Shown here: positions 13,751-37,921 of the stretch, piece by piece | How positions within the stretch are numbered: position 1 is the stretch's first letter | How the letters are laid out: the number at the start of each line of letters is the position of its first letter | From: a virus | DNA length: 37,921 nucleotides | IMG/VR virus record: IMGVR_UViG_3300045988_123646 | Coordinates: 1-37,921 of that record | Reading direction: 5' to 3' (one strand) | Program-made: the position numbers and the translations under genes | The notes under the pieces: model-generated | Databases searched by the model: none | Told to the model about the DNA's origin: nothing | What the model saw: only the letters and a program-made list of their open reading frames with translations

Positions 13751-13805
13751 AGTGTTTTTTCTCCTTTTTTGGTCTGTGGGTGTTGCCCTGTGTTTTGATT
13801 TGTTG

Positions 13806-13839: not shown

Positions 13840-13872
13840 TAGCTTTTTTGAATTTTTTTGAAAAAATATTTT

Positions 13873-13916: not shown

Positions 13917-13974
13917 TTTTTTTTTGCTTATATAGTATTTAATTTAAACATTATAGTGCAAAAGAGGTGTGACA

Positions 13975-14511: not shown

Positions 14512-15926
14512 CAAAGATTAATTATTTAGGTGTACCGAATGACAAGCAAAGACAATTCTTGCTTGCAAAGCAGAAGTATGTTGCGTATGGCGGTGCAAGG
14601 GGCGGAGGAAAATCCTTTGCTGTGAGAATGAAAGCCAAATTATTGTGTGCGAGGTACGCAGGGATAAAGACACTTATAGTCCGTAGGACATATCCCGAAT
14701 TGCTCAACAACCACATTAACACGCTAAGAGCAGAACTGGCAGGAATCGCCCGATACAACACACAGGACAAGATATTTACATTTCCGAACGGTTCGACAAT
14801 AAAATTTGGCTATTGTAAAAATGATGCTGACCTTCAACAATATCAAGGTGCTGAATTTGATGTGATTTTCATTGACGAGGCTTGTTTGCTCTCTGAACAC
14901 CAAATCAAGGCTATTACGGCTTGCTTGCGTGGTGTAAATGATTATCCGAAAAGAATTTATTATACTTTGAATCCAGGCGGTCAGAGTCACGGTTATTTCA
15001 AGCGGTTGTTCATTGACCGCAAATTTGGTCAGTATGAGCAACCTGATGATTACTGCTTTATTCAGTCGCTCGTAACGGATAATATGGCTCTTATGGAGAG
15101 TCAGCCTGAGTATATTCAACAGCTTGAGGCATTGCCCCCAAAACTCCGTGATGCTTGGCTCTACGGCAGATGGGATGTATTTGATGGAATGTTCTTTGAA
15201 GATTTCCGCACGGTGGTTGATGTTGTAGAGGCTCACAAACTCGGTCTTTCTCCTGAGGATGCCCTCAAATACGGCAGATACACTAATGTGATAGAGCCGT
15301 TTGATATACCGCAGGAATGGCGAGTATATAGAGCATATGACTTTGGTTACGGTAAGCCGTTTGCAATGCTTTACATAGCTGTAGACTATGACGGACGAGC
15401 GTATGTTATTGACGAATATTACGGATGCACAGCAACACCGGATGAAGGAGTTAAATGGCAACCGTATAAGCAGTTTGAAGTGCTGTCAGAGTATGAACAT
15501 ACACAGCCACAGCTTGCAGGTCGGGATATTCAAGGAGTGGCAGACCCAGCAATTTGGGACGGCTCACGAGGCGAGTCTGTCAACGATGTAGCTGAAAAAT
15601 ACGGCATTTACTTTGATAAGGGACAGAATGACCGTGTTGCTGGGTGGATGCAGATGCATTACCGTTTTGCATTTGACGAAGTCGGAAAGCCGATGCTCTA
15701 TGTGTTCAGCAACTGCAAGCACACGATAAGGACTCTGCCTTTGCTTATGTTTGATGAAACAAAAAAAGAGGACTTGGACACAAGCCAAGAAGACCACATC
15801 GCTGATGCGTTGCGATATTGGTGTATGTCAAGACCGATAGCACCTGCACGCAAGATTGAGCCAAAGATACCACAGCCGAATCCGCTGTCGGAAGATAACG
15901 AAAGGAAGAATTACTTATGGCATTAA
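14508..15926 (+). CDS. terL: Terminase large subunit
   Basis: Walker A YGGARGGGKS, Walker B-like DVIFIDEA, and a C-terminal nuclease domain with conserved acidic residues (AYDFGY, VADPA, DHIADALRY). Confidence 0.9.
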   Translation: MTKINYLGVPNDKQRQFLLAKQKYVAYGGARGGGKSFAVRMKAKLLCARYAGIKTLIVRRTYPELLNNHINTLRAELAGIARYNTQDKIFTFPNGSTIKFGYCKNDADLQQYQGAEFDVIFIDEACLLSEHQIKAITACLRGVNDYPKRIYYTLNPGGQSHGYFKRLFIDRKFGQYEQPDDYCFIQSLVTDNMALMESQPEYIQQLEALPPKLRDAWLYGRWDVFDGMFFEDFRTVVDVVEAHKLGLSPEDALKYGRYTNVIEPFDIPQEWRVYRAYDFGYGKPFAMLYIAVDYDGRAYVIDEYYGCTATPDEGVKWQPYKQFEVLSEYEHTQPQLAGRDIQGVADPAIWDGSRGESVNDVAEKYGIYFDKGQNDRVAGWMQMHYRFAFDEVGKPMLYVFSNCKHTIRTLPLLMFDETKKEDLDTSQEDHIADALRYWCMSRPIAPARKIEPKIPQPNPLSEDNERKNYLWH

Positions 15927-18031
15927 GAAGAAAAAAAAGACGAGAAGAAAAGGAGCGTAGACAGGCAGAACAGCAGACAGAACTGCAGAGAACGCAGTCT
16001 GCTCCCGATAACCGCATTTTGTGGACTCAAGACGAGCGAAATCAGCTTGAACATATGCAGAACGGCTCAGAATTGCCACAAGATGACACAACAACCGAGC
16101 AGACAACGCAGATGTCATCTGATGACAATGCACCTACACAGGGCATTGTAGGCAGTGCTACAGCAGAGGCAAAAACCGTGCTGAATCCTGTTGTAACCGA
16201 GCGTACAGTCTTACAGGCATATGACCGCTTAATGCGGTACAAGACCTACAAGACAAGTCTTGATAGACGAATCAAAGCGAACGAGGATTACTGGAAACTC
16301 CGACAATGGGATTACTATGACCGAAACGGCAACAAGAAAAAAGGTGACAACGAGGTCGCAACAGCTTGGCTGTGGAACTGTATTGCATCAAAGCACGCAG
16401 ACTTGATGGACGGTTATCCTGAATCAAACATCAGACCTAAGCGTGAAGATGATGTGGAAGAGGCGGAAAAGCTCAAGAGTATCTTACCTGTTATCTTCGA
16501 GGAAAACGATTACGAAAACACTTACTCAGAACTTGCCAACTACATACTTAAACAGGGAGTTTGCTGTGCTGGTGTCTTTTGGGACGGCACTAAGCACGAT
16601 GGACTCGGTGATATATCGGTCGAAAAGATTGATATACTCAATCTGTTTTGGGAGTCAGGTGTGACCGACATACAGGACAGCAAAGAAGTATTCCACACCT
16701 CGCTTGTGGATAACGAATCACTTGTCAAGCAGTATCCACAACTTAACGGTAAACTCAACAGCCACAAGGTTATATCAGACCAATATCGTACAGATGATGC
16801 CATTGATACAGACGGTAAGACAACCGTTGTAGATTGGTTCTATAAGCAGTCAGATAGCAACGGCAATCAGGTCTTGCATTACTGTAAGTTTGTAGAGGGT
16901 ACGGTGCTTTTTGCAACCGAAAATGATGCAGAAAACTATCCAAATGGTTGGTATGACCACGGACTCTATCCCTTTGTTGTTACTCCGTTATTCCCTGTTG
17001 AGGGCAGTATTGCAGGATACGGCTATACGGACATCGGCAGAGGTGACCAACACGCAATAGATGTACTTACACAGGCTATGCTTACCAATGCGAGAGTAAC
17101 AAGCAAGCCGAGATACTTCATCAAGACCAACGGAGCGGTCAACGAGGCTGAATTCGCTGATTGGAAAAAAGACTTTGTACACACAACAGGTAGTTTAAAC
17201 GATGACTCAATCATGCCGATTACAACCTCACCAGTACCGACATTTGTTGTGAATATGAGGGAAAACCTCATAGCTGAGATGAAAGAAACACTCGGTAACC
17301 GTGATGTGAACAATGGTGGTAGCACTTCGGGAGTTACCGCCGCATCGGCTATTGCGACAATGCAGGAACAGAGCGGTAAGATGAGCCGTACTCATAACAA
17401 GATTATGTACACGATGCACCGCAAGATTACGAATATGGTCATTGAATTAATCCGTCAATTTTACGATGTACTCAGAGAGTACCGCATTACAGGCAAATAC
17501 GGACAAGAAAAATTTGTACAGTACAACAACGCAGGACTCAAGCCACAGAAACAACCGAGCATTCTCGGCAGAGATATGGGACTCAGACTGCCTTGCTTTG
17601 ATATAGAAGTAACCGCACAGAAAGCCTCGCCTTACACAAAGATGGAGCAGAACGAACTTGCGATACAGTTGTACAACCTCGGTGTGTTCTCTCCTCAGAA
17701 TGTTGATATGTCGCTTATGCTGTTACAGACAATGGATTTTGCACACAAGGATGAAATCATACAGATGATAATGCAAAACGGCACGATGTTTGATAAGTAT
17801 CAGCAGTTACAGAAGATTGCGTTCAACCTTGCACAGCAGGTAGATATGCAGAATGGCACGCAGATGGCTGAACAGCTTGCACAGGCGATTCTCGTTGAAA
17901 ATGGAAACAATTCCGAAGAGCCGAGCGGTAATCTCTCTGTTGATGGCATTACAACAGACGATACATCCGAAAGGTCATTCATGACGAATGCAAGGGAAAA
18001 AGCACAGGCATCAACTCAGGTTAATCAGTAG
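15917..18031 (+). CDS. Portal protein
   Basis: 704-aa ORF immediately after, and overlapping, terL. Size and position are typical. The N-terminus is basic and Q-rich. Confidence 0.7.
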   Translation: MALRRKKRREEKERRQAEQQTELQRTQSAPDNRILWTQDERNQLEHMQNGSELPQDDTTTEQTTQMSSDDNAPTQGIVGSATAEAKTVLNPVVTERTVLQAYDRLMRYKTYKTSLDRRIKANEDYWKLRQWDYYDRNGNKKKGDNEVATAWLWNCIASKHADLMDGYPESNIRPKREDDVEEAEKLKSILPVIFEENDYENTYSELANYILKQGVCCAGVFWDGTKHDGLGDISVEKIDILNLFWESGVTDIQDSKEVFHTSLVDNESLVKQYPQLNGKLNSHKVISDQYRTDDAIDTDGKTTVVDWFYKQSDSNGNQVLHYCKFVEGTVLFATENDAENYPNGWYDHGLYPFVVTPLFPVEGSIAGYGYTDIGRGDQHAIDVLTQAMLTNARVTSKPRYFIKTNGAVNEAEFADWKKDFVHTTGSLNDDSIMPITTSPVPTFVVNMRENLIAEMKETLGNRDVNNGGSTSGVTAASAIATMQEQSGKMSRTHNKIMYTMHRKITNMVIELIRQFYDVLREYRITGKYGQEKFVQYNNAGLKPQKQPSILGRDMGLRLPCFDIEVTAQKASPYTKMEQNELAIQLYNLGVFSPQNVDMSLMLLQTMDFAHKDEIIQMIMQNGTMFDKYQQLQKIAFNLAQQVDMQNGTQMAEQLAQAILVENGNNSEEPSGNLSVDGITTDDTSERSFMTNAREKAQASTQVNQ

Positions 18032-18440: not shown

Positions 18441-18626
18441 ATACCCAAAATAACATTTTGCTGATGACCGCAAAATGTTCAATTCGTAAAAAACACCCAT
18501 TTTTACGAATTGCAAAATTTTTTATCGTTTTGAAATTGATGGTTTGAGGTATTTTATTCTGCAATGATAAATTGAGAACATAGGCTCGTGACCTTAACCA
18601 CAGACTTTTTATGGAAGGAGATAGCA

Positions 18627-21375: not shown

Positions 21376-23202
21376 ATGGCTTTTAATTTTCCACAGCTTG
21401 ATTCATCCTCTGCACAGCGAGAGTATCAGGAACAGTTTGCAGGATATAACCACAACATCCGCATCGGTGACACGGAGTTTTATGATATGCAGAATATGAC
21501 AGGCAATTACTATCCTGTGTTGTCACCGAGAGATAAGAGAGGTATTGTACAACAGTTTACCAAACCAAAATGCATGGCAAGCCGTGATAACCTCTGCTAC
21601 ATTGACGGTATGTATTTATACATTGACGGCGAAAAGGTTGACCATATTATTTTGACAGACACAGAAAAAACAATGGTATCAATGGGTGCATACCTTGTTA
21701 TTTTCCCTGACAAGGTCTTTGTTAATACGGAAGATATATCTGACTGGGGATATCTTGATAACACTATTGAAATAGCAACAGAGGTCAACAATGTTGTATA
21801 TACGATGTGTACGCAAGATGGCACTAAATATCAGTACCAAAACCCAAAAGGTGAAAACTATGTCTATGTAGGTGATGAGTCACCTAATGTCGGTGAGAAG
21901 GAAACAGTCGCAAACGGTTACAAATGGCTTGATACAAGCGGTGACACGCACTACTTGAAGGTATGGAATTCAAACACACGGATGTGGTCATCTCTCTCAA
22001 CAACCTATGTGCGTATTGAGTCAACAGGCATTGGTAAAGGTTTCAAGGAAGGTGATGCCGTAACAATCAGCGGTTGTGACTCCTCATCCTCTTCGGGTAG
22101 TGACAAAATCAAAGAACAGATTGATACTCTTAACACTTCAATGCTTATCAAGTCTATTGATGAGAAGGAAAACTGGATTGTAGTTACTGCAATACTTGAT
22201 AATGTTGTCACTCAGTCTGCTGGTACGGTCAAGCTTGAGCGTGTTGCTCCGATTATGGATTTCGTTATCGAATCAAACAACCGTCTGTGGGGATGCCATT
22301 ACGGTCTTAACAACGAGGGCAAAATCGTCAATGAAATCTATGCTTGCAAGCAGGGTGATTTCAAGAACTGGTTTGTATATGCAGGTATATCAACGGACTC
22401 TTATGCTGTTTCCGTTGGCTCTGACGGTGTGTGGACAGGTGCAATTGCTTACGGTAGTTATTTACTATTCTTCAAAGAAAATTGCATACACAAGGTTTAC
22501 GGCTCAATGCCGAGCAATTATCAGGTAATTGAGCAAAAAGTAAGAGGTGTTCAGAAGGGTTCATCTAAGAGTCTTTGCATACTCAATGAAACTCTGTTCT
22601 ATAAATCTGCAACAGATGTCTGTTACTATGACGGTTCATTGCCAACAAGCATATCAAATCCTCTCGGTGCGGTTAGCTATAGTAACGCTGTCAGCGGTAG
22701 TATTGGGAATAGATATTATATCTGTATGCAGGACACAAGCGGTGTATGGACTCTCTTCGTTTATGATATCACTACTGGAATGTGGCACAAGGAAGATAAC
22801 ATTCACATCAAAGAGTTTTGCAAGGTTAAAACAGACCTTTACTTTGTTGATGCCGACAGTTATCAGCTTATGACCACAACAGGCAGAGGTACGACAGAAG
22901 ATGACTTTGAATGGTATGCAGAAACAGGCTCTATAGGCTATTCCTACTCCGATAACAAGTATGTAGGAAGAATGTTACTCAGAGTGCAAAAACCGATTAC
23001 AAGCCAAATTAGAGTGCGTATTCGCTATGATGACTCAGAGCATTGGGAAACAGTTTCATCGATTGGCGGTCACGGCACGAAATCTTATAGCATACCTGTC
23101 CTGCCTCGCAGATGTGACCATTTTGCAATTCGTATCGAGGGAAGAGGTACTTGCAAAATTTATTCGATTTCAAAGGTATTGGAGATTGGAAGTGATGTAT
23201 AG
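21376..23202 (+). CDS. Tail structural protein with beta-propeller-like repeats (nozzle / tail tubular candidate)
   Basis: 608 aa with recurring blade-like segments (LWGCHYG, YLLFFKENCIHKVYG, LFYKSATDVCYYDG, RYYICMQD...WTLFVYD, LYFVDADSY). Confidence 0.5.
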   Translation: MAFNFPQLDSSSAQREYQEQFAGYNHNIRIGDTEFYDMQNMTGNYYPVLSPRDKRGIVQQFTKPKCMASRDNLCYIDGMYLYIDGEKVDHIILTDTEKTMVSMGAYLVIFPDKVFVNTEDISDWGYLDNTIEIATEVNNVVYTMCTQDGTKYQYQNPKGENYVYVGDESPNVGEKETVANGYKWLDTSGDTHYLKVWNSNTRMWSSLSTTYVRIESTGIGKGFKEGDAVTISGCDSSSSSGSDKIKEQIDTLNTSMLIKSIDEKENWIVVTAILDNVVTQSAGTVKLERVAPIMDFVIESNNRLWGCHYGLNNEGKIVNEIYACKQGDFKNWFVYAGISTDSYAVSVGSDGVWTGAIAYGSYLLFFKENCIHKVYGSMPSNYQVIEQKVRGVQKGSSKSLCILNETLFYKSATDVCYYDGSLPTSISNPLGAVSYSNAVSGSIGNRYYICMQDTSGVWTLFVYDITTGMWHKEDNIHIKEFCKVKTDLYFVDADSYQLMTTTGRGTTEDDFEWYAETGSIGYSYSDNKYVGRMLLRVQKPITSQIRVRIRYDDSEHWETVSSIGGHGTKSYSIPVLPRRCDHFAIRIEGRGTCKIYSISKVLEIGSDV

Positions 23203-26018: not shown

Positions 26019-27257
26019 ATGGCATATGTATATCAGAAATACAATCAGTCGGCTAATGCAACAAATTATCAGAACCGACAGGATGATGCAACAAACCGAT
26101 ATAACGATTACGCTCAGACAGGCTACACAACAGGGGCAGGTGGTTTCGGTGGTCAGATAAATTCTGCACAGGCTAAACTTAATCAGTTATACGGTAACAA
26201 CAATCTCTCACAGCAGTTTAAATACGGCAATCAGGGAGCTTATAACAAAGCGATGAACGCTGTTGCCAACCGTAAACCGTTTTCCTATGACCTTTCAAAT
26301 GATACGCTTTTTCAACAGGCGAAAGAGCAGTATCAGAATATGGGCAAGGTTGCAATGGCTGATACAGTAGGTCAGGCATCTGCGATGACAGGCGGTTACG
26401 GCAACAGTTACGCAACAACGGCAGGCTCTCAGGCTTATCAAGGTTATCTGCAACAGCTTAACAATGACATCGGCAATTATTACAGTATGGCATTAAGCGG
26501 TTACAATGCCGAAACAGACAGACTTAATAACATTTACAATATGTACGCTCAAGACAGAAACCAACAGCAGAATGAGTGGTCTAACAACTGGAATGTATAT
26601 AACAATCTGTATGGCTTGTATCAGAGTGAATTGCAGAATGCACAGAGTAATGACCTCAACGCTTGGAATCAGAAAGGTACAAACCTTTACAACTCCGCTA
26701 ATCTTGCGACAAATCAGTACGGTACTGCATCAAGCAATGATATTGACACCTGGAAACAGGGCGAAACATTGCGTGCAGAACAGGCACAGCAGGAAGAAAC
26801 CGAAAGAGCAAACCGTATTGAAGAGGCATACAAGAATGCACAGCTCGCAGAACAAATCAGAGCGAACAAAGCCGAAGAGGCTTATAGACAGTCTGCTCTT
26901 GCTGAAACAATTCGCAACAACAGGGCAACCGAAAAAATCAATTCATACAAAGCACAAAACTCGTCATCATCTAAAAAAAGTGCTGAGTCTTGGTATAATG
27001 TAAACGCAAAATCAACAAGCAACAATACAACCTCTGCATACATTCAGAAGATTGACAGTGAGGCACACTCTTTACAGTACAGTAAATACGGCGGTGATTA
27101 CACAAAAGCAATCAACAATGTGCTTGAAAAGTATATGGATAAAGCACTTACTAATCACACTCTTTCGAGTGGTGAGATTAACTATATCACTAAATATTAT
27201 GGTGCTTCCGACCTTGCAAAGACACTCAAAAGAGTACAGAAATCTTTTACTAAATAA
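26019..27257 (+). CDS. Q/N/Y-rich virion protein (412 aa), candidate internal/ejection protein
   Basis: The N-terminal 250 aa are low complexity and rich in Gln, Asn and Tyr. These are followed by helical repeats (EEAYKNAQLAEQIRANKAEEAYRQSALAETIRNN). Confidence 0.5.
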   Translation: MAYVYQKYNQSANATNYQNRQDDATNRYNDYAQTGYTTGAGGFGGQINSAQAKLNQLYGNNNLSQQFKYGNQGAYNKAMNAVANRKPFSYDLSNDTLFQQAKEQYQNMGKVAMADTVGQASAMTGGYGNSYATTAGSQAYQGYLQQLNNDIGNYYSMALSGYNAETDRLNNIYNMYAQDRNQQQNEWSNNWNVYNNLYGLYQSELQNAQSNDLNAWNQKGTNLYNSANLATNQYGTASSNDIDTWKQGETLRAEQAQQEETERANRIEEAYKNAQLAEQIRANKAEEAYRQSALAETIRNNRATEKINSYKAQNSSSSKKSAESWYNVNAKSTSNNTTSAYIQKIDSEAHSLQYSKYGGDYTKAINNVLEKYMDKALTNHTLSSGEINYITKYYGASDLAKTLKRVQKSFTK

Positions 27258-27268: not shown

Positions 27269-30200
27269 ATGACTTTTCGTGATTTACTCAAAAAGAAAAA
27301 TAATGATAATGACTCTCAATCGACAAGTTCGGTTGAGAGTTCTTCCGCAACTATTGACGATACACAAAGCAAAAATAAAACAATGAGAAGTACACTCGGA
27401 CAGAGTGATAGAGCAAACAATAAATCAATGCTTGACTATCTTCGTACACAAGAGGCGGTTGGTCAGGAAGAAGAGGAACAGACTGACACAGCACAAGCCT
27501 CAGCAGGTGTTGATATTATGTCAAGGTACTATAATTCATCTCAGCTTGCAAACAAAAACGCACAAAATGAATTGAGTAAAAGCACCTTTGACTCAATGAA
27601 AAATAAGGTTGATAATATTGCAAAGTATTATAACGGCTCAAATAAATTGTCTGATGATATGGTGTCAGCTTATAAAACTTTATCAGATAATGGTTATAAA
27701 AGCCTTGAAGAAGTCGAGGAAAATATACTTGACGGTGATTTACCAAAAGATGTTACAAGTGCTTACAAGTATATTACTGACAATCTTAATAAAATTTCAT
27801 CTACTGACCAACAGTCAACCGATACTCTTGGTGCGTTAGCAAAACAGTATGTAGCTAAACACGGCTATACAGAGGACACGGAAGATTATCAAGCTTATAT
27901 TCAAAACGCAGAAGATGTTGAAAACTACTATAAAAATTCAGCAAAAGAAATTCAAAATGCAATGTCAGATTTTGACACAGAACAGGAATACAAATCTGCT
28001 GTTGCACAGGCAGAAGAGGATGCCAAAACTTCCGATGACTTACAGAAGGAATATGACAAGAAGAAAGCCGAGTATGACAGCACTTGGGGCGATTTCAACA
28101 AGGAATATGCCGAAATTGGCGGTAGTTATAATAACAATCCCTTCACTACGCAGGGCAAAAACGCAAAAAAGAAATTGCAAGAACGCACCGACCAAAGAAC
28201 CGAACTCGATAACCTACAGAAAAAAATTGACCAAAAAAAGGAACTTGAAAACGAAAAGAAATACTATACTGATTTCCGCAAGCAAAATCCCGAAGTGGCA
28301 AAAACTCTTGATGCTTACTATGATATGCAGTCATATGAAGAGGAACACTCCAAAGATTCATTTGATACATATAACAAGGATGCTTTAAAAGAGAAACTCG
28401 AAAAAGGCAAATCGCCGACAGATTCCTTATATACCGATGAAGAGAAAAAAGCTATTGAAACTAACTTTAATTCGCTTAAAACTCTCGATGGTTGGAATGT
28501 TGACCAAATTTATAAATACTACAAACGAGCAAAAGACAGAGAAAAAGCTGAGAAAGAAAATGAAAATATTAAAGATTTTGCTGATAAACACCCGATTGCA
28601 AGTACGGCTATAAGTACGCTTAATATGATTCCGTCAGCTTTTGAATCCTCACCAAAACAAGTTGCATCTGTTGTCGATAAATGGACAGGCGGTGACGGAT
28701 ATTATAATCCCGAGGAATCTGCCGTGTACCAAAACAATTTACTGCAACAAAAAGTCGCAAGTAATATAGATAATCCGTTAGGAAGATTGGCTTACCAACA
28801 GGGAGTCAGCCTTGTTGATAACGCTATTCGTATGGGTATCGCATATGCAAATCCTGCTGTCGGATTGTCTACGATGGGTGCGGAAGCAGCAACACAGGGA
28901 TTTAATGATACTGTTGAAAATGGCGGTTCTGTAGAACAGGCACTTTTCACAGGTCTTGCTTATGCAGGTGTTGAAGTGCTTACCGAAGGTGTATCACTTG
29001 GTAAACTGAAAAGTTTTAAAAATGGCGGTGTAAAGGAATTCAAGAGCATTTTAAAGAATGCAGGAAAGCAGATTTTGACCGAGGCATCGGAAGAAGTATC
29101 CGCAACACTCCTTGATAGTGTAGCAGATGAAATCATTAACGGTAGCTTATCTCAGCTTGAGACAGAGTATGACAGATATATTGACAGCGGTATGTCTGAA
29201 ACCGAGGCAGGACAGGCAGTAATGCTGAATTACGGCGGTCAGATTATACAGGATGCAATTGGCGGAGCGTTGATGGGCGGAATTTCGGGTACTGCCGTCA
29301 ATACATCTCAGTACAGACGAAATATTAAGGCAGGAAAATCTATATCCTCTCTTAATAACATAGACACAGTTAAGAATCTTGCCAAACATTACGGTCTTAA
29401 TAACAGCGTTACCGATTATGAAAGCAATCCGACTGATGCAAGACTCGGAGCTTTGCAGAGCGAGGCATACGAAAAAGCAACAGAAAGTATGCCAACAGAA
29501 AAAGACTTTAAAAGAGTTATCAAAAAAGCAAACCTTGCATCGGATGAAAATGTTGTTGCAAACAAACTTACAAACGGTGAAAATTTAACAGACGATGACC
29601 TCGAAAAAATCAAAAAGTCTGAAAGTTTAAAGTCACTTCTTGCAAACGATGTTGTCAATCAGGCAAAGAGTGCAAGATTTAATCAGCAGACTGCATTGCT
29701 TTCCGCAGACACAAAACTGTTCACACCGAGCCTCATTGAATTTAACGCTGAGAAAAGTGATGCTGATGCAAATCTTAACAATGCCGAAACGCTCGACAAG
29801 TTTCTTTCGGAAAACTCTAAAAATATGACAATCAACACCGATACGGTCGATAAGATGAAAGATGCTTATAACGGCTTGGAAGATAAAATCGAACCTGATA
29901 CTTTCGCTATGGAGTATGCGAGATTTTTCAATCAGGGTGTCCGTGCGGTTGCGTTTCAGAGCTTGAATAGCACAGTATCACAGTTACCGTACAATGTACA
30001 AGTATCGGCTTATGAAGATGGCTTAAATAAGTACACAACGGCACTCAAAGCTGGCAACGCTCTTTCAAAATTACAGCAGGAATGGAAAGACAAAACAAAC
30101 GGTTACGCTAAAGGTACGGTTGACACTTCCGCTCTTGAAGGTATCAAACTTAACGATGAACAGAAAGCATCTGTTGATTATATCTCAGGCTATGCTAATC

Positions 30201-33200
30201 ACGGCTTGAATGTTAAGTTTTATGCATCACGGGCTGACGAAAACGGTGTGTATATAGACGATAACGGTGGTTATGACTCTTTGACTAATACCATAATGAT
30301 TGATATTAACGCAAAGAAGGAAACCATCAACGATGTTATAAGTAAAGGTGCGATGATGTCAACTTTCGGTCACGAACTTTCCCACCTTGCTGAACACGCA
30401 CCCACAGAGTATGCAGAGCTTTCAAAAGCTATTCAGGATGCCGTTGGTGCTGATACATTCAACGATGCAGTCGATAAGCATTATTCTATACTTGAAGAAC
30501 GCAACAGCGACAAATGGCAAAAAATGTCAGAGGATAAAAGACAAATTTATGCGACAAGAGAGGCAGTTGCTGAATTTTCTTCTGACCTTGTTAACAAAGC
30601 AAAAATCCTTGAAAAAATGTCAAAAGAGAATCCTTCTGTTGGTAAGAAGTTTATCAATCTCATTAAGAAGGTTATTAGCAAGATTAAAAGCATTCTCAAG
30701 GATAACAGAGGTATGACCGATGAGGCAAGACTACTTGCTAACGACCTTGCAAGCAATGCTGAAAAACTGCAGTCAATTGTTGATAAGTACGAAAAAGCTG
30801 TCATCGAAGGACTTAAAAATCAGAATGCAAAAGTTCATACAAATAAATCTTCTGTAAAAGAAAATAATACAAAAACTCAAAGTAATACAAGAACAGGAGA
30901 TTTTCTTACAGAAAGAGAAAGAACGCTTGTAGCAACACACAATATAAGTTCACAGAACCTTATGAATCTTATCAACGATTTTGACGGAGCAGGTTTACCA
31001 GTACCGAGCATTGCAATTGAGAAAGCTGATAGTGTTCACGATGATTTTGGCGATGTTACTCTGTTGTTTAGCAAGGACACGATTGACCCACAGAATAACA
31101 GTAATAACAATGTGTACAGCCGTGATGCGTGGACAAGTACCTTTCCACAGACGGAATACAAAATTAACGCTGAGGGCCTTAAAGCAATTGCGAAAAAGTT
31201 AGATTTATCTGAGAATTATCTCGAAAGTAATATATTTAACACTAATGATTTAAATGGAATTAAGCGTAAATTTTTAAATGACAGATATGTACGAAAAGCC
31301 TTCATTGAAGAAAACAATATTGAGGTTACCCCTGTTGCATATGAAAAAAAACCTAAATTCTCATTTTTCGCAAACCCAACTGTCAAGTCTTTTATCAAAA
31401 ACAACAACTGTACATTTGATAGACTTGTTAATGACAAAGAATTTCGAGATGCTTTTTTAAAGGTTGCTAAAGAGTCAATTCGACTGCGGATTGCGTTGCG
31501 ACAAGTCGAAAGATTTGAAAACACTCTTGATGATTGTGCAAAATCTAAAGATGTGTACAGCGATTCCAAAGAGTCAATTGAATACTGCATTGAATATGCC
31601 AAAGGTAATGCTAAAAAAGAAGTGACTGAATACTCATATGAAGAAGGTATAGAAAATGCTATCAATGAGCATAAAGCGGAATTTGAAAAGTATATAGACG
31701 ATATGCTTTCTGAAAGCGGTGTCATCGGTGATAAATATATTATCAGAGATGATGTTAACTTGTATAACAATGACGGCAGTAGGAAATCTTTTGAACAGAC
31801 ACATTACGATTACAATATTGATAATGTAGTCAAAGCTATGAAAGTAGGAAGGAGTGCTATCAGTAATTCTTTTTTTGGTGGAATAGAATACGCTAAAACA
31901 ATATCAGCCAAAAATCTCAATAGCATTGAAGAAATTAAAAGTAATGAACATAAGTTACAAGAATTATCGGCTGATGAAATCGAAACCCAAAAGGAAAACA
32001 TTTCCAATCTGCTTGCTCCGATAATAAGAGAGATTGCGGACAGTAGTAAATACAGCAACAGAGAATTTGACGATGGCTATATAGAGGCAAGTAATAGTGT
32101 TGTGGATGCGTTTAAAAGGTACAATACTATTGACGGAGTGTATAAATATCTTAAACAGTATTATGGTAACCTCAAAAAAAGCACGATTAATAAACTTTTC
32201 AAAGCGAGAGATGAGATTGCCGAAATGCCAGTAAGATACTTCGAGGCAAAGCCACACAGAGTTGTAGGATTTGACGAGGTAATGGCGGTGGTTATTCCTG
32301 CTGATGCAGACGAAAAATTAAAAACTGCTCTCAAAAAAATGGATATTCCCATGTATGAGTATGCTGACGAAAGTCAAAGAGCAGATGCTACGCACAAAGC
32401 AATCAACACGGAATATACAGACAAATCGGGTGTAACTTATGATAATCTTCAATTCTCAAGTAACAGAGGTGACTTTCTCAGCAACCGAGAGGCACTCGCA
32501 CAGGCTCTTGAAACAACAACAATTAACGCATCAGAGCGAAACACCGTCAAGACCTATCAACAGGGACTTGAGCAAATGAACAAACTCAACGATAAGCTTA
32601 ATGAGATTGACAGCAAAATTAAGACTATCAATGCCAAAGACAACATCTCTAAGAGCGACAAAGCGGAGATTGCATCGCTTATGAAAGTTAAAGCGGAAAC
32701 CGAAGAAAAAATCGTAAACAAAGACAAAAATCTTTTAAAACTGGAGTCAACTGAGGCAATGCGTAACATCTTGAAATACGAAACTTCTAAGAAAATTGCA
32801 AGGGTGCGTGAGCAGAAGAATGAGCGTATTGCTGAAATCAGAAAGCAGGAAACGCAGAAACGCAAGGATGCCGTTGCAAAACTCCGTAAACAGAAGAATG
32901 ATAAGATTGATGATATTATCGTGAAAAACCGTGAGAAACGAAAAGCAGATGCCGAAAAACGCAAGGATAATCAGGATTGGTCACACTCAATCAGTGAAAT
33001 CAAGAAATACTCGAAGAAATTGTTAGATGCTGTCTTGCATCCGACAGAAAAGATGTATATTCCATACGGCTTGAATGAGCCTATCAAGAGCATTACATCA
33101 ACTCTTCTTGATTCAATCAATCTCGATAACGATACTAAGATGTCAGACAATCTGAGAAAACTCTCTCAACAGCTTGAACAAGTCAATCAAAGCGATGAGC

Positions 33201-35995
33201 ATTACGGTGATTTTTACAATGCTTACAATGAGGAAATTATCGAGGAAATAAAAGGCTTTGCCGATTACCTTGATGATAGACTTGAAGGTGTCAAAATCAA
33301 GAAGCAGACACAGGGAGAAAGCCTTATCGAAGGACTCACACACGAAGAGGCTAAGGAAATTGAACAGATTGTCAAAGATGTGTACAACGCAACAAGGGAT
33401 GCTGTTAAGCAGATTGGTAGACAGGATGCTATTACTAACTATGAGTCAGGTTTAAGGATTATTAATCAGACAAGAGAACTCGGTGATGTTAAGCTTAATG
33501 TAATGGACTCATTACTTGACCAAGTATTATCACCGATGCGACTTATGGCGAAGTACACAGGCTACAATGCGGATGCCGAGCTTATGTATCACATCAATGC
33601 TCTTAACGAAGGTACAGAAAAGTACAATATGTTTAAGATGCTTGCCGAAAAGCCTCTCAATGATTTTATCAAAGAAAATCCAAAGGAGTACGAAAGCTTT
33701 AAAAACGATGTCATCGAAATCAAATACCGTGACAATAAGAATGTTGCACAGACTGTCAAAATGACAAAATCACAGGGATTGCAGATACTGATGTCTTGGA
33801 CAAGAGAACATACAGAAGACTCTCACCTTGACCATATGGAGCGAGGCGGTGTTACTCTGCTTGATGCCGAACAGATAAGTAAAGGCAATTATGAAAAGGC
33901 ATTTGCTCAAAGAAAGACTATCAGAGGCATTAATTTAAGTTTCATATCGGCTGTGCAGAGTCAAATGGGAGAGTTTGAAAACCATTATCGTGAACTTGCT
34001 GAAACTCTCTTCAATGAGGTTTCAAATGCTTACATCAATGACACTTCTGCAATTCTTCTTCATCGTGACATTGCAACCGAAAGATACTACATACCTTTTG
34101 CTGTTAATAAAGATTTTCTTTCAACGGAGATTGACGGTCTAAAGTACGATGCGACCATTGTCAACAAGGGTATGCTGAAATCTACGAAAAGAAACGCACC
34201 ACAGGCTCTTAACATTGCAGGACTCGACAGCGTTATATCGAAGCATATAAGAGATGTCGGACAGTATTACGGTTACGCTGTGCCTATTCGCAATCTTAAC
34301 AAGGCACTCAATGTTAAGTTGTTTGACACAAACGAAAACGGTAACAAGATTGCAACAGACTCCGTCCGAAACTCCCTCAGAGAAACCTTTAATTCTGACA
34401 AACCTATTCAGTTTATCGAACAGGTAATGACTGATTTACAGACATCAAGAAAATCAAACTCTCAGACCGAAAAAGCAATCAATAAGATTGTTAGGGCAGT
34501 CAGAGATAATATGATTACATCGGCACTCAAAGGCTCTGTATCGGTAGTTATTAAGCAGGGTGCATCATTGTACACAGCATCAAGCATTCTTTCAATGCGT
34601 TCCGTATCTGTCGGTGCAGTCAAAGGCATTCAGCAGATTGCTCGCAAAGGTGGTTGGAAACAGCTTACAGATGAGATTGATACACACACGGCAGGTCATT
34701 ATATGCGTAGAATTGGCTTGTCATCGATGGAAATTGAGGCAATGAAAGACTCTTGGCTCGGTAAGAAACTGCCCACAGCACTCAACCCTGCAAAATGGAT
34801 ACAGGGTACAGACTGTATTACAACAGCGTTGCATTGGGTGGCTACTAAAGAAGAAGTAAGCCGACTTTATAAAGAACAGGGAAAAGCTGACCAAATAGGC
34901 TCTGATGAATATTTTGACGAGGTCACAAAGTTATATGACCAAATCCTTGAAGAAACACAGCCTATGTATGACAGTTTGCATCGAGGCGAGATACAGAAAA
35001 ATTCAAACGAGTTGTTAAAGTCTGTATTTATGTTCAAAACTCAGCCATTGCAGAACACAGGTATTTTGTATGATGCAATTATGGATTATCAGGCAAACAA
35101 GGACAATGCAGAACTTCGAGATGTCAAGAAACAAAAACTTGCAAAAGCAGTTTCTTCACAGATGATGTCAGCACTTACTTTCGTTGCAATGACCTTTATT
35201 GCATCTCTCGCTCTTCATAAACCTGAACGCTACAAAGATGAAAATGATGAGGTCACTCTTTCATCTGTTCTTGAAAGACTCGGTATTGACTGGGTAGAAA
35301 CAGGATTTAGCGTTCTTGTTCCGATTGGTGGTGCTGAACTTGCATCTTTCATTGAAAATCAGATTAACGGTAAAGATTATGATTTTGCTTCTGACAATGT
35401 TGTGTCAATGCTCAATGACTTTACTTCATCAATCGGTGACTTTAACCAGAATGTTATTGTTGCTCTTGCACAAGGTAATTTTGACCTCGACAAAGCAAAA
35501 GATGCCCTATGGGGATTATCTGTCGATGGTCTTGCATTTTTCAGAGGATTCCCATTGAAGAATTACAGCAATATCATTAACGGTATCTTCTCTAATTTGT
35601 CGGATGCAATCAGCGGTCACAGCACTTACTTCGGTTCATCGGGCGGTCGAAAAGGTAGTGAATACGCAAACTCATATGATGTACTTATTGACAATAACCC
35701 CGAAAAGGCAAAGCAACAGCTTGAAACATTCTACAATGAGAAGTACGAAGAGCAGATTGCAAAAGGCGAAACCACAACAGAGGCTAAGAAAAAAGCACAG
35801 ACCTCTGTCCGTACTGCACTAACTACGCAGTATAAGAAAGAGTATCAAAAAGCATTTCTTAATAATGACCGTGACACAATGCAGAAAATCAACAAGAAAC
35901 TGCAGGAGTCAGGCTATATGAAGTGGGAAGGCAAATCATTGTCAACCGTGTTAGGCGAATGGACTAAGTCAGCTCAAAAAGATTCAAGCAAATAA
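27269..35995 (+). CDS. Giant 2,908-aa polyvalent-type virion protein with an HEXXH metallopeptidase-like domain
   Basis: One uninterrupted ORF with an AAGGAGA RBS. It has coiled-coil regions, glycine-zipper/hydrophobic segments (GGALMGGISG, MMSALTFVAMTFIASLAL), and HELSH at 30371..30385 in the context MMSTFGHELSHLAEH. Confidence 0.75.
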   Translation: MTFRDLLKKKNNDNDSQSTSSVESSSATIDDTQSKNKTMRSTLGQSDRANNKSMLDYLRTQEAVGQEEEEQTDTAQASAGVDIMSRYYNSSQLANKNAQNELSKSTFDSMKNKVDNIAKYYNGSNKLSDDMVSAYKTLSDNGYKSLEEVEENILDGDLPKDVTSAYKYITDNLNKISSTDQQSTDTLGALAKQYVAKHGYTEDTEDYQAYIQNAEDVENYYKNSAKEIQNAMSDFDTEQEYKSAVAQAEEDAKTSDDLQKEYDKKKAEYDSTWGDFNKEYAEIGGSYNNNPFTTQGKNAKKKLQERTDQRTELDNLQKKIDQKKELENEKKYYTDFRKQNPEVAKTLDAYYDMQSYEEEHSKDSFDTYNKDALKEKLEKGKSPTDSLYTDEEKKAIETNFNSLKTLDGWNVDQIYKYYKRAKDREKAEKENENIKDFADKHPIASTAISTLNMIPSAFESSPKQVASVVDKWTGGDGYYNPEESAVYQNNLLQQKVASNIDNPLGRLAYQQGVSLVDNAIRMGIAYANPAVGLSTMGAEAATQGFNDTVENGGSVEQALFTGLAYAGVEVLTEGVSLGKLKSFKNGGVKEFKSILKNAGKQILTEASEEVSATLLDSVADEIINGSLSQLETEYDRYIDSGMSETEAGQAVMLNYGGQIIQDAIGGALMGGISGTAVNTSQYRRNIKAGKSISSLNNIDTVKNLAKHYGLNNSVTDYESNPTDARLGALQSEAYEKATESMPTEKDFKRVIKKANLASDENVVANKLTNGENLTDDDLEKIKKSESLKSLLANDVVNQAKSARFNQQTALLSADTKLFTPSLIEFNAEKSDADANLNNAETLDKFLSENSKNMTINTDTVDKMKDAYNGLEDKIEPDTFAMEYARFFNQGVRAVAFQSLNSTVSQLPYNVQVSAYEDGLNKYTTALKAGNALSKLQQEWKDKTNGYAKGTVDTSALEGIKLNDEQKASVDYISGYANHGLNVKFYASRADENGVYIDDNGGYDSLTNTIMIDINAKKETINDVISKGAMMSTFGHELSHLAEHAPTEYAELSKAIQDAVGADTFNDAVDKHYSILEERNSDKWQKMSEDKRQIYATREAVAEFSSDLVNKAKILEKMSKENPSVGKKFINLIKKVISKIKSILKDNRGMTDEARLLANDLASNAEKLQSIVDKYEKAVIEGLKNQNAKVHTNKSSVKENNTKTQSNTRTGDFLTERERTLVATHNISSQNLMNLINDFDGAGLPVPSIAIEKADSVHDDFGDVTLLFSKDTIDPQNNSNNNVYSRDAWTSTFPQTEYKINAEGLKAIAKKLDLSENYLESNIFNTNDLNGIKRKFLNDRYVRKAFIEENNIEVTPVAYEKKPKFSFFANPTVKSFIKNNNCTFDRLVNDKEFRDAFLKVAKESIRLRIALRQVERFENTLDDCAKSKDVYSDSKESIEYCIEYAKGNAKKEVTEYSYEEGIENAINEHKAEFEKYIDDMLSESGVIGDKYIIRDDVNLYNNDGSRKSFEQTHYDYNIDNVVKAMKVGRSAISNSFFGGIEYAKTISAKNLNSIEEIKSNEHKLQELSADEIETQKENISNLLAPIIREIADSSKYSNREFDDGYIEASNSVVDAFKRYNTIDGVYKYLKQYYGNLKKSTINKLFKARDEIAEMPVRYFEAKPHRVVGFDEVMAVVIPADADEKLKTALKKMDIPMYEYADESQRADATHKAINTEYTDKSGVTYDNLQFSSNRGDFLSNREALAQALETTTINASERNTVKTYQQGLEQMNKLNDKLNEIDSKIKTINAKDNISKSDKAEIASLMKVKAETEEKIVNKDKNLLKLESTEAMRNILKYETSKKIARVREQKNERIAEIRKQETQKRKDAVAKLRKQKNDKIDDIIVKNREKRKADAEKRKDNQDWSHSISEIKKYSKKLLDAVLHPTEKMYIPYGLNEPIKSITSTLLDSINLDNDTKMSDNLRKLSQQLEQVNQSDEHYGDFYNAYNEEIIEEIKGFADYLDDRLEGVKIKKQTQGESLIEGLTHEEAKEIEQIVKDVYNATRDAVKQIGRQDAITNYESGLRIINQTRELGDVKLNVMDSLLDQVLSPMRLMAKYTGYNADAELMYHINALNEGTEKYNMFKMLAEKPLNDFIKENPKEYESFKNDVIEIKYRDNKNVAQTVKMTKSQGLQILMSWTREHTEDSHLDHMERGGVTLLDAEQISKGNYEKAFAQRKTIRGINLSFISAVQSQMGEFENHYRELAETLFNEVSNAYINDTSAILLHRDIATERYYIPFAVNKDFLSTEIDGLKYDATIVNKGMLKSTKRNAPQALNIAGLDSVISKHIRDVGQYYGYAVPIRNLNKALNVKLFDTNENGNKIATDSVRNSLRETFNSDKPIQFIEQVMTDLQTSRKSNSQTEKAINKIVRAVRDNMITSALKGSVSVVIKQGASLYTASSILSMRSVSVGAVKGIQQIARKGGWKQLTDEIDTHTAGHYMRRIGLSSMEIEAMKDSWLGKKLPTALNPAKWIQGTDCITTALHWVATKEEVSRLYKEQGKADQIGSDEYFDEVTKLYDQILEETQPMYDSLHRGEIQKNSNELLKSVFMFKTQPLQNTGILYDAIMDYQANKDNAELRDVKKQKLAKAVSSQMMSALTFVAMTFIASLALHKPERYKDENDEVTLSSVLERLGIDWVETGFSVLVPIGGAELASFIENQINGKDYDFASDNVVSMLNDFTSSIGDFNQNVIVALAQGNFDLDKAKDALWGLSVDGLAFFRGFPLKNYSNIINGIFSNLSDAISGHSTYFGSSGGRKGSEYANSYDVLIDNNPEKAKQQLETFYNEKYEEQIAKGETTTEAKKKAQTSVRTALTTQYKKEYQKAFLNNDRDTMQKINKKLQESGYMKWEGKSLSTVLGEWTKSAQKDSSK

Positions 35996-36061: not shown

Positions 36062-37921
36062 ATGAAATCAAGAACGATGAAGTTTACGCTTGACTGCTCC
36101 AAAGTGGGGAATCAGTTATGCATAGATGGTATCAGACAGGGCGATGCCAACTCTATTGTATTCATCATTTCGCTTGCAAACGGCATCAATTTACTTGATG
36201 TTGTTGCGGGGAAAGAGGAATCTGTTGTTGTGACAATGTACGGCAAAAAAACCGATGGCACAACAATTGTCCGTGATTGCGGAATTAACGAGGACGGCAA
36301 CATCACATACACTATCCACACTCAGGATACAACTTGTGTCGGCATCGTCAGTTATCAGCTTGTTGTTACATCAACAAGAGAGAAAATACTCGCGTCCCCT
36401 GTTTTTAGTACAATGGTCGAAGAACGAAATCTCTTCAAGACTTATACAGTATTGACAGCACGGCCTGATGACTGGGCAGATGGTTACGATAAGTATTATT
36501 ACTATGAAGATGGCAGATTTTACAAGCTGAACCGTTTTGAGAGTGAGCTTGCTCCCAAATGGGTAATCAACAAGTATTACTCTGTCAATGACAATGAAGT
36601 TGAAAGCACATCAGACTTTGATGCCCTTGCATATGCTCTCCTTAGAGCAAAGCAATACTCAGACAGAACCGAGGAATACCTTGCAGAAGTTAAGAAGAAA
36701 GCAGATAAAAGTACCACGCTTGCAGGATACGGTATCACAGATGCCCTACAAAACGCAAAAGGCACAGTAAGTACAAACAACCTTGCCGATAATTGCGTGT
36801 CCTCTAACAAGCTGTCAGCGGATGTTCGGGCAAACATTAACAGCAAAGCTGAATCAGCGAAAGTCAGTCAGCAGTTATCACTCAAGGCAGATGCATCATC
36901 CGTATATACTAAGTCTGAATCTGATGCACTTCTTAAAGCCAAAGCAAACTCGGCAGATGTTGATGCATCTGTCAAAACAATCAACACAACAATTGCGAAC
37001 AACCAAAAAAGTGTGAATGCAAGCCTTAAAAGCCTCAACACAGCATTAACCAATAAAGCCAATACAGATGTTGTCAATGAGGTAAAACAGCGTGCAGAGT
37101 CAAATACAACGGCAATAGAGCTTAAAGTAAGCCGTACCGACTTTAACAACACCGTGACCAATCTCACAAATAGCATTAACGGAAAAGCTGACAGCAATTC
37201 CGTTTATTCAAAGGTTGAAACCGATAATTCGCTCGGTGAAAAAGCAGATAAGGCAGATGTTGATACCTCACTAGCAAACAAAGCTAATCTTGTCAGCAGC
37301 TCGAATATTTTTGATTTCGATGATTGGGCGAAAGGATTGCAGGGGCTTACTACTCCGGTTTACAGAGGCACTCTCGACAAAGTAGATTATAGCGAAAAAT
37401 CAATTACTTTTACCGGTAATGAAGCTCGTTCGTACACTAACGGATGGAATTCGTCAGCACCGCAATCTATGAGAATAGCAGTTAAGCCAAATACAAAATA
37501 TTTATTTTCGTGCTTACCATCGTCAAAAAAATGCGAAGCAGATGTTTTCTTGAATGGAATTACAGCTAATCACTTTGAGCTAAAAGGGGGCTTTGGTTCA
37601 TTTACAACGGCAGAGGACACAACTTATATTTTGATTCGGTTTGTTTATTCCGAAATAGGATTTTTCAAGGTGTCCAAAATTATGATCGCCGAAAAAGAAT
37701 CAATCTACTTACCAAATACAGTCGCAGAAGGCGTCCCAGAGGTTGCAAACGAGGTTTTTGCGTTTGAAAAGACAACCCAAGCTTCACTTGACGGTAAATA
37801 CGATTCAGCGAACATAGAGAGCGGTACATCAACACTCACACCGTATTCAACCGTCACCGATAAAATCAAAAGTGCAAGCTGTACATATAAGACGATTGGT
37901 GACATCGTAATCGTCAGTGCA
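36062..37921 (+). CDS. Tail fibre / receptor-binding protein, N-terminal 620 codons (continues at 1..328)
   Basis: AGAGGTGA RBS. The BppU-like N-terminal domain (MKFTLD...) is followed by a long run of K-A-D/S-containing helical repeats (SKAESAKVSQQLSLKADASSVYTKSESDALLKAKANSADVD). The ORF has no stop before the window end. Confidence 0.75.
   Translation, partial: MKSRTMKFTLDCSKVGNQLCIDGIRQGDANSIVFIISLANGINLLDVVAGKEESVVVTMYGKKTDGTTIVRDCGINEDGNITYTIHTQDTTCVGIVSYQLVVTSTREKILASPVFSTMVEERNLFKTYTVLTARPDDWADGYDKYYYYEDGRFYKLNRFESELAPKWVINKYYSVNDNEVESTSDFDALAYALLRAKQYSDRTEEYLAEVKKKADKSTTLAGYGITDALQNAKGTVSTNNLADNCVSSNKLSADVRANINSKAESAKVSQQLSLKADASSVYTKSESDALLKAKANSADVDASVKTINTTIANNQKSVNASLKSLNTALTNKANTDVVNEVKQRAESNTTAIELKVSRTDFNNTVTNLTNSINGKADSNSVYSKVETDNSLGEKADKADVDTSLANKANLVSSSNIFDFDDWAKGLQGLTTPVYRGTLDKVDYSEKSITFTGNEARSYTNGWNSSAPQSMRIAVKPNTKYLFSCLPSSKKCEADVFLNGITANHFELKGGFGSFTTAEDTTYILIRFVYSEIGFFKVSKIMIAEKESIYLPNTVAEGVPEVANEVFAFEKTTQASLDGKYDSANIESGTSTLTPYSTVTDKIKSASCTYKTIGDIVIVSA
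37837..37921. repeat. Direct terminal repeat, right copy
   Basis: Exact 85-nt copy of 1..85. Confidence 0.9.

Follow-up and report, generated by a model that had tools for sequence, protein, structure and literature searches.

Giant proteins of short-tailed phages and the analysed locus

Polyvalent proteins of phages were predicted computationally in 2017, together with their packaging and their processing by metallopeptidase (MPTase) domains (Iyer et al. 2017, PMC5512222), and hardly any of them has been studied since. Gp50 of phage N4 is packaged in about four copies and ejected last, and a "beads on a string" model with anchoring through its N-terminal domain (NTD) has been put forward (PMC13434306). 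It combines a lipid-binding NTD with an HExxH domain, C1 (PMC13434306); this peptidase was placed at amino acids (aa) 2130-2448 by Iyer et al. (PMC5512222) and at aa 2124-2375, as C1 of the C-terminal domain (CTD-C1), in PMC13434306. Another case is gp47 of phage phi24B, a protein of 2,811 aa that is abundant in virion proteomics but invisible in reconstructions (bioRxiv 10.64898/2026.04.10.717836), and which has been proposed as a packaged ejection protein (bioRxiv 10.64898/2026.04.10.717836). Here we analysed a viral DNA of 37,921 nt (IMG/VR record IMGVR_UViG_3300045988_123646, positions 1 to 37,921; hereafter the window), in which one open reading frame (ORF) at 27269..35995 on the + strand encodes 2,908 aa (hereafter the giant protein). 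Judged from its sequence and by analogy with the systems above, the giant protein is probably a phage-type polyvalent protein, in which a conserved delivery frame holds an exchangeable effector cassette and which would be packaged and injected.

Two disparate activities are predicted in the one chain, a zincin-like peptidase and a PBECR5 RNase, to which relatives add an ART-PolyVal (ADP-ribosyltransferase, ART) domain. These domains belong to the network shared by polyvalent proteins (PF18814 here; ART, LPD, PBECR and MuF_C models in the family), and the giant gene adjoins the portal-terminase packaging genes and virion genes of a prophage. The initial annotation had proposed a polyvalent or ejection protein, and the polyvalent assignment is borne out by PBECR5 (107 bits), by the zincin-type HEXXH and by the ART-PolyVal, PBECR3/5, MuF_C and LPD3/23 domains of relatives. 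As in the polyvalent proteins of Iyer et al., a zincin-like peptidase forms a hub for PBECR/ART-PolyVal cargo, LPD and MuF_C occur in relatives, and the gene lies among the virion genes of a portal-terminase phage; the mosaicism resembles that of Helicobacter jhp1044, whose orthologues are extensively mosaic (Iyer et al. 2017, PMC5512222). Unlike in those proteins, no Pfam model matches either the peptidase domain or the C-terminal module, and there is no fusion to MuF, portal or ArdC-N. Moreover, the frame described here is fixed and collinear, and no such frame was found described in Iyer et al. 2017 (PMC5512222). The protein class is already known, and the giant protein is a well-resolved example of it rather than a novel type of system; in public annotation, close relatives already bear the label "nuclease". 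New with respect to the literature compared are the architecture of frame plus slot, the peptidase clade and the C-terminal module, both unannotated, and the profile link of the peptidase clade to N4 gp50.

The exchangeable cargo cassette

The cargo cassette (aa ~1196-1724; 30833..32467, +), delimited by identity breakpoints, base composition and the match to phrog_22978, consists of a PBECR5 core, a variable insert and a conserved C-terminal block. PBECR5 (PF18814; aa 1215-1325; 30911..31243, +) is the sole Pfam domain of the giant protein (E=1e-30, 107.5 bits against a gathering cutoff of 25), with scores of 107.5-113.8 bits over the giant protein and its relatives. This family was defined in the polyvalent-protein paper as a phage BECR-fold predicted RNase (PMC5512222). 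When seven divergent homologues, among them a 2,839-aa protein of phage Ab9, are aligned with the giant protein, H1224 (30938-30940, +) of the first helix is invariant. A second conserved block (aa 1653-1677) follows a variable insert of ~300 aa that splits the PBECR5 domain; with this split, no residue was assigned as the C-terminal Ser/Thr of the family. Only one PHROGs family was matched, phrog_22978 (unknown function; a 3,513-position profile), at aa 1195-1704. From sequence, the cassette is predicted to be a PBECR5 endoRNase with H1224 as its catalytic His.

Among 5.8 billion proteins searched, 425 relatives of the giant protein were found, and 118 of the 119 listed relatives could be mapped onto the query. 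Sixty-five of the 118 are colinear with it, and 53 keep aa 1 to ~1195 (86-98% identity) and aa 1725-2908 (94-98%) around another middle of 229-986 aa. The alternative middles comprise ART-PolyVal (PF18760) in several versions as well as modules of 357 and 627 aa that belong to no family, and some relatives stack PBECR5 and ART-PolyVal in tandem. Through this exchange, protein length ranges from 2,611 to 3,364 aa in near-identical phages. The same breakpoints are seen in the DNA: identity to a related locus (L002) is 93-94% on either side of the cassette, ending at nt 30832 and resuming at nt 32468, and the G+C content of the cassette is 0.36, compared to 0.39-0.40 in its flanks. Over 66 colinear relatives, identity is 45-76% with indels at aa 1-300 and 90-99% further on, with 75-79% at aa 1300-1600 (the insert in the cassette) and 96-99% at aa 1700-2900. 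The cargo position is a recombination hot spot, at which related prophages swap or stack an RNase, an ADP-ribosyltransferase and modules of unknown function; such cargo exchange is expected from an arms race.

A motif, R-x-G-D-F-L-[ST]-x-R-E, is found at both borders of the cassette. Loose matches to it occur in 18 of 102 divergent giants (20 matches, compared to 7.6 expected in shuffled sequences). Since the motif itself is confined to the close clade, it is read as a recombination linker.

The diversity of cargo extends beyond close relatives. In a Pfam census of 15 divergent giants, which are 16-37% identical to one another, ART-PolyVal was present in seven, PBECR5, LPD23 and MuF_C in two each, and PBECR3, LPD3 and DUF6782 in one each, so that the census yielded polyvalent-protein domains only. 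Pfam models found in family members are PF18760, PF18838, PF18819, PF18812 and PF18798. Among the cassettes of relatives, the 357-aa one (P0095/P0090, "DEYNDLFDFDY...") and the Cys-containing 627-aa one (P0083) have no Pfam match; both are candidate new effector domains.

The predicted metallopeptidase domain

Directly upstream of the cargo, aa ~940-1195 (30086..30853, +) form a domain whose prediction as a gluzincin-type metallopeptidase is supported by homologues, invariant residues, structure modelling and profile comparison. With aa 801-1200 as query, 1.84 billion cluster representatives were searched exhaustively, and 273 homologue clusters were found (E<=1e-3), nearly all of them proteins of 2,300-4,800 aa with the match at aa ~700-1300. 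The HEXXH that the initial annotation had located at 30371..30385 (+) is HELSH at aa 1035-1039, the sole HE..H of the giant protein; H1035, E1036 and H1039 are present in every one of 146 homologues (23-47% identity). The third zinc ligand is predicted to be E1098 (30560..30562, +), which like A1101 reaches 99% conservation over the same homologues and is invariant in alignment A1; it lies in an A-x-x-E-x-x-A helix that begins 59 residues C-terminal of HELSH.

An AlphaFold2 (AF2) model of the domain, built from 35 diverse sequences (predicted local distance difference test (pLDDT) 85, predicted template modelling score (pTM) 0.75), consists of a helix (14-29), three strands (32-36, 51-54 and 59-63), the HExxH helix (79-92) and the Glu helix (139-160), with HExxH and the downstream Glu both on helices. 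According to Iyer et al. 2017 (PMC5512222), the zincin core begins with a helix, which is followed by a sheet of three strands and by two helices at the C-terminal end, and this core is what the model shows. When the model was compared with the PDB by Foldseek, the top 16 neighbours were all gluzincins (anthrax lethal factor (LF), PPEP-1/Zmp1, PPEP-3, IrrE and minigluzincins), a result that supports the fold class and no specific family. The relation to a recognised polyvalent MPTase, N4 C1, is seen profile-to-profile only. For this comparison ten N4-like virion RNA polymerases from annotated genomes (nine Schitoviridae) were aligned, and hhalign related the HEXXH alignment to the N4-like C1 region with a probability of 92% (E=5.8e-7), aligning HELSH with HELVH-2228, while controls with reversed alignments and wrong regions gave P=0.03-0.77. 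At the level of sequence profiles, the HEXXH domain is thus related to the N4 gp50 peptidase domain. The "metallopeptidase-like block" of the initial annotation is supported by the invariant HExxH, the 99% conserved Glu, the zincin-core model, the gluzincin neighbours (with weak scores) and the hhalign link to N4.

The function of this domain could be a different one, if the giant protein were mainly a structural ejection or conduit protein whose HEXXH domain acts as a cell-wall peptidase that opens the Gram-positive peptidoglycan, PBECR5 being secondary or inactive. Cell-wall peptidases typically belong to families M15 and M23, whereas the closest fold neighbours here are M34-type protein endopeptidases (anthrax LF, PPEP-1). 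The profile relation to N4 C1 and the invariant catalytic His predicted for PBECR5 also speak against this explanation, and the cargo swaps between near-identical frames argue for an effector function. It is favoured by the gene lying in the injection-protein position, by the hydrophobic elements in N2 and in the C-terminal module (see below), and by the structural genes, none of which was recognised as coding for another virion-associated peptidoglycan hydrolase; in addition, a cell-wall peptidase role has been proposed for phi24B gp47 by its authors (bioRxiv 10.64898/2026.04.10.717836). On balance we consider it rather unlikely, and a polyvalent protein with an intracellularly acting cargo is preferred.

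The conserved frame

Outside the cassette and the peptidase, the giant protein can be divided into three N-terminal and two C-terminal regions, the distribution of which was followed over 150 divergent representatives. N1 (aa 1-450; 27269..28618, +) is charged and coiled-coil-like (K+R+D+E 27-46%), with hypervariable aa 1-300, and was found in only two of the 150. N2 (aa ~450-720; 28616..29428, +), present in 74, is G/A-rich (G+A 20-27% at aa 501-700), mildly hydrophobic and helical, and is a candidate membrane-interacting element. N3 (aa 721-939; 29429..30085, +) is a globular or linker region of unknown function without Pfam or PDB match, conserved in close relatives only (six of the 150). 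Downstream of the cassette, a K/E/R-rich coil (C1 of the giant protein, aa 1725-1900; 32441..32968, +; K+R+D+E 51% at aa 1801-1900; 35 of the 150) opens the C-terminal half and is followed by the C-terminal module (aa 1901-2908; 32969..35992, +), about 1,000 aa that are mostly alpha-helical. One block of this module, C3 (aa 2250-2600), was found in 66 of the 150, and N2 and the C3 block are always collinear with the peptidase domain in the divergent representatives. The glycine/hydrophobic stretches reported initially correspond to the G/A-rich aa ~500-700 and a hydrophobic element at aa 2627-2651.

The C-terminal module is the most conserved part of the giant protein (96-99% identity in close relatives) and is collinear in divergent giants. 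Its hydrophobic element, a transmembrane-like helix of 25 aa (aa 2627-2651; 35147..35221, +) followed by an acidic RY-x-DED-x-E motif, has a mean Kyte-Doolittle value of 1.7 and is the only region of the giant protein where the mean of a 19-aa window is at least 1.3; helix and motif are conserved across the family and align in the Ab9 giant too. An AF2 model of the module from 19 sequences (pLDDT 74, pTM 0.69) is almost all alpha-helical. It has 62 fold matches in BFVD (E down to 1.7e-37, TM 0.4-0.6), all of them terminal pieces of giant proteins of uncultured phages, which are named after varied cargo (PolyVal ART, nuclease, MuF-C, LPD, GNAT and others). There is no fold neighbour in the PDB and no Pfam match for the module. 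When the PDB was searched by sequence, the only matches to the HEXXH region, to its profile or to the C-terminal profile were spurious ones to coiled-coil or designed proteins, and the NCBIfam search added nothing to the domain picture. On the evidence of sequence comparison, the collinear frame of N2, peptidase, cargo slot, coil and C-terminal module is ancient.

Relation to N4 gp50 and other giant proteins

The similarity to N4 may extend to a part of the NTD. The N2 profile matches the N4 gp50 NTD with 16.8 bits (hmmsearch) over the stretch ADEI-x-x-x-SL-x-x-LE...Y...I-x-x-GMS-x-x-x-A, and hhalign gave a probability of 39% (P=3e-4, compared to 0.04-0.31 for controls). The N4 region matched directly follows the predicted membrane-spanning helices of the NTD (PMC13434306). 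In the reciprocal search with a hidden Markov model (HMM) of the N4 NTD, the locatable matches do fall in N2; a separate search for homologues of the N4 NTD returned only three proteins, and the N4-like sequences were taken from the annotated genomes instead. Searches of the giants with N4 profiles, HMM-to-sequence, left the profile-to-profile links unconfirmed and were too insensitive for this purpose. The relation of N2 to the N4 NTD is suggestive. No RNA polymerase (RNAP) family of Pfam, PHROGs or NCBIfam was matched by the giant protein, which is no N4-like virion RNA polymerase (vRNAP), and hhalign of the HEXXH and N2 profiles against the N4 RNAP region gave P=0.09-0.31. The likeness to an N4-style ejection protein suggested initially applies only to the peptidase domain and possibly to part of the N-terminal domain. 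A gene-size order resembling that from N4 gp59 to gp50 was dropped as evidence, as no homology was found.

Like N4 gp50 (~3,500 aa), the giant protein is a very large single chain encoded in the late or virion gene block, and both have a large all-helical terminal module without known structural relatives. Unlike in N4 gp50, where the peptidase is downstream of the cargo, it is located upstream here; the phage is temperate, half the size of N4 and has a Gram-positive host. It is conceivable, although we would put it forward tentatively and with more doubt than confidence, that the frame is a general protein-delivery chassis of short-tailed phages and has a common origin with the NTD and the C1 domain of N4 gp50. 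In that case the N4 vRNAP would be one specialised cargo, and the C-terminal module a hitherto undescribed packaging or membrane-translocation device that would serve for Gram-positive envelopes too.

Phi24B gp47 is likewise a giant polyvalent protein of a temperate short-tailed phage, and its gene is the last large gene before the prophage end, as it is here. No sequence relation was detectable between gp47 and the N2, peptidase and C-terminal profiles; its domains are different ones (LPD5, LPD1, LPD38 and MuF-C) and the host is Gram-negative.

A tblastn search of INPHARED with the giant protein found only the Acinetobacter phage Ab9 (cassette only) and three unannotated faecal fragments, and a near-DNA search with the structural half gave no match in this database. 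The Ab9 protein (PP763254, CDS0016; L005 6271-14790) is a "hypothetical protein" of 2,839 aa that takes up 22% of a 38.7-kb genome, and its gene directly follows genes annotated as internal virion proteins in a phage that has been cultured. It shares the whole PBECR5 cassette at 25% identity over ~480 aa and is matched weakly, in collinear order, by the C-terminal profile, with the hydrophobic helix and the acidic motif among the matched parts. It differs in having a GNAT domain before PBECR5, its one HExxH (HEIGH) positioned after the cargo, very low overall similarity and a proteobacterial host. The Ab9 giant could serve as an experimental model for such proteins.

Ejection proteins of P22 and T7 are internal to the virion and are proposed to build conduits across the cell envelope. 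In P22 the genes for gp7, gp20 and gp16 follow the head-completion genes and are located 5' of the tailspike gene, with the immI region between, and the giant gene occupies the position that corresponds to these genes and to those of T7 gp14/gp15/gp16. Unlike the giant protein, the P22 and T7 ejection proteins are several separate small proteins without effector cassettes. The family HMMs showed no homology to P22 gp4, 10, 26, 14, 7, 20 or 16 (E>=0.065); T7 proteins were not compared. For the T7 gp16 likeness that had also been suggested, the comparison with the P22 injection proteins offered no sequence support, T7 gp16 itself not being part of it.

Gene, prophage and host context

The giant gene (27269..35995, +, stop codon included) is a single uninterrupted ORF with an ATG start in the ORF list of the window, preceded by a GGAG Shine-Dalgarno sequence 8 nt 5' of the ATG. 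Proteins of 2,8xx-2,9xx aa that are identical or near-identical to it occur on many independent metagenomic contigs, and the ORF is therefore no chance open frame. Between it and the stop codon of the upstream gene there are only 11 nt; that gene encodes a Q/N-rich 412-aa protein of unknown function (26019..27257, +; assigned on its Q/N content, with no family match). No terminator-like site on the + strand was found at either junction of the giant gene, and the sole + strand match to such a site is weak and internal to the ORF (35330). Taking together the ribosome binding site, the short gap and the lack of a junction terminator, the giant gene reads as a member of the late operon. Downstream follows a tail-fibre-like ORF (36062..37921, +) that crosses the circular junction into window positions ~1-330. 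The window ends in an exact 85-bp direct repeat (1-85 = 37837-37921), which indicates a circular assembly of ~37,836 bp, 23% of which is taken up by the giant ORF. The single 8.7-kb ORF of 2,908 aa, its share of the genome and its position between a Q/N-rich gene and a fibre-like gene (from ~36062) agree with the initial annotation, the observations of which were confirmed in all points.

The source is a temperate phage with a P22/SU10-type portal. Relatives of this phage are integrated as prophages in Clostridia of gut and rumen. The left arm carries genes for an integrase, a repressor, Mu-Gam-like and Erf-like proteins, a replication initiator, two DNA methyltransferases and an endolysin. 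On the right arm, the small and large terminase genes are followed by those of the portal (15917..18031, +; phrog_156, with PF16510 and PF23899 on the identical gene in relatives), a Prp-type peptidase, a scaffold-like protein, the major capsid protein (MCP) and a protein matching phrog_511 ("internal virion protein"), then by those of an 841-aa and the 412-aa protein without family, the giant gene and the fibre-like gene. The identical portal is annotated as P22_portal and SU10_portal on contigs of relatives. In these, the phage block is integrated in bacterial contigs of 270-414 kb beside housekeeping genes, with the giant gene near the prophage end.

This context bears on the question whether the giant protein could be the tape measure protein (TMP) of a long-tailed phage. 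Its great length, the coiled-coil and G/A-rich hydrophobic segments and the gene position between head genes and a fibre gene would fit such a role. Against it speak the portal, with its P22/SU10 type, and the gene count, with only six ORFs separating the giant gene from that of the capsid protein; no window protein matched families of tail tube, sheath, chaperone or tape-measure proteins; nor is there a Pfam TMP domain in the giant protein. In addition, the central enzymatic cassette is freely exchanged, with lengths of 2,611-3,364 aa, by which the tail length would change. In agreement with the initial annotation, which had thought a classical tape measure unlikely for lack of tail tube and chaperone genes, this possibility was rejected on the grounds of the portal, the missing family matches and the P22 injection-gene position, and we leave it hardly any probability.

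A toxin or lysogenic-conversion factor of the polymorphic-toxin kind, expressed by the lysogen and not part of the virion, would also carry variable cassettes. BECR RNases and ARTs occur commonly as modules of toxins (PMC5512222), the cassettes vary as those of polymorphic toxins do, and the gene is close to the prophage end. However, no signal peptide, secretion-system domain or adjacent immunity gene was found; downstream are the fibre gene and an ORF of 92 aa. The giant gene shares its strand with the structural genes and is closely linked to them, as no gap for a promoter or terminator intervenes, and the conserved frame of ~2,400 aa is common to phage giants only. A lysogen-expressed toxin is unlikely, and more so than a conduit protein with a cell-wall peptidase; an injected polyvalent protein remains the most plausible interpretation.

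Hosts were approached through GTDB. A first scan with the single protein as query gave no match, and a scan with a short alignment of the conserved C-terminal block (A4) found relatives in gut and rumen metagenome-assembled genomes (MAGs) of Ruminococcus, Eubacterium, Agathobacter, Lachnospiraceae and Ruminococcaceae. Since these are all MAGs of Clostridia, the hosts are taken to be Gram-positive Clostridia. A further family member (L024, JAZRYJ010000002.1), 44% identical in the conserved C-terminal block, is located on a 43-kb contig that was binned in an archaeal MAG as "Candidatus Methanarcanum sp."; this assignment is most likely a binning artefact.

Proposed mode of action and significance

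In the mode of action that we propose, the giant protein would be produced from the late operon and packaged in the capsid of the short-tailed temperate phage. At infection it would be expelled through the tail with its parts flexibly linked in one chain, in the way put forward for N4 gp50, and the hydrophobic elements of N2 and of the C-terminal module may help to form or anchor a passage across the envelope of the Gram-positive Clostridia. In the cytoplasm, the cargo would be active in the first minutes, cutting host or defence RNAs, and the peptidase would probably cut the chain, freeing or activating parts of it. The role of the peptidase is the least certain step: N4 gp50 is packaged uncut, so that the enzyme here need not be an autoprocessing one, and a cell-wall role has been suggested for phi24B. 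The giant protein as a whole is most likely present in the virion and injected, given the gene position and the parallels with N4 gp50 and phi24B gp47.

A number of findings weigh against this interpretation and should be set beside it. With respect to the effector, the PBECR5 match covers only positions 11-116 of the 239-position profile, that is, its first half. For the peptidase, no Pfam family, MPTase-PolyVal included, matched aa 801-1200 at E<=1, there is no PDB sequence match to the HEXXH domain, and the scores for the gluzincin fold are weak (best E 0.043 and TM 0.42; E=0.04-0.9 and TM<=0.44 over the top 16). N4 gp50 itself is packaged unprocessed (PMC13434306), and the junction motif, considered as a general cleavage site, was rejected for being confined to the close clade. 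Regarding the N4 parallel, the link between N2 and the NTD is weak, with its probability of 39% and a reciprocal HMM that reached at least 10 bits in only four of 151 proteins. For the C-terminal module no relation emerged to N4 C2 (P=0.04) or to P22 injection proteins, and nine window proteins compared by hhalign with profiles of gp51-gp58 showed no homology (best E=0.011, MCP against gp56). Finally, the family is carried by no cultured phage in INPHARED, and virion presence and injection of the giant protein are inferred by analogy.

The near-identical prophages of abundant human-gut Clostridia, which differ almost only in the effector of one slot, represent a natural experiment. They offer a handle on the targets of the effectors, on the job of the invariant zincin, and on how a chain of ~330 kDa is packaged and passes a short tail into a Gram-positive cell. 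The C-terminal module (62 structural relatives) and the peptidase clade (273 clusters) are both unannotated and merit family models. If true, the link through the peptidase, and perhaps through N2, would tie N4 gp50 as the best-studied injected mega-protein to a much larger class, and if the chassis proposal were to hold, cargo-swapping injected mega-proteins would be environmentally widespread.

Neighbouring genes and further observations

The 841-aa protein (23202-25727) and the 412-aa protein, encoded directly 5' of the giant gene, gave no match in Pfam, PHROGs or NCBIfam, and by their position are candidate tail or further ejection proteins. The Prp-type cysteine peptidase (109 aa, 18047-18376) matches phrog_4478, with PF04327 on relatives. 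L27-like Prp cleavage motifs are present near the N-terminus of the MCP (19644-20642; LILQLFA|D, aa 8-14) and of the scaffold-like protein (18588-19625; FNIQLFA|D, aa 31-37). Such N-terminal L27-like motifs on capsid and scaffold proteins are likewise known from Staphylococcus phage 80alpha. Prp-type sites, a search for which had been recommended, are thus present in the capsid and scaffold proteins, and none was found in the giant protein.

On the left arm, the two DNA methyltransferase genes (8021-8830 and 12055-12771) belong to the same PHROG (phrog_67), and the endolysin gene (11108-11992) is located 5' of the terminase genes instead of closing the late operon. A stretch of ~1.2 kb (12772-13968) separates the second methyltransferase gene from that of the small terminase and has no ORF of at least 80 aa. 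Both GC and AT skew change sign in this interval; a pac or cos site, regulatory signals or small genes may be located there.

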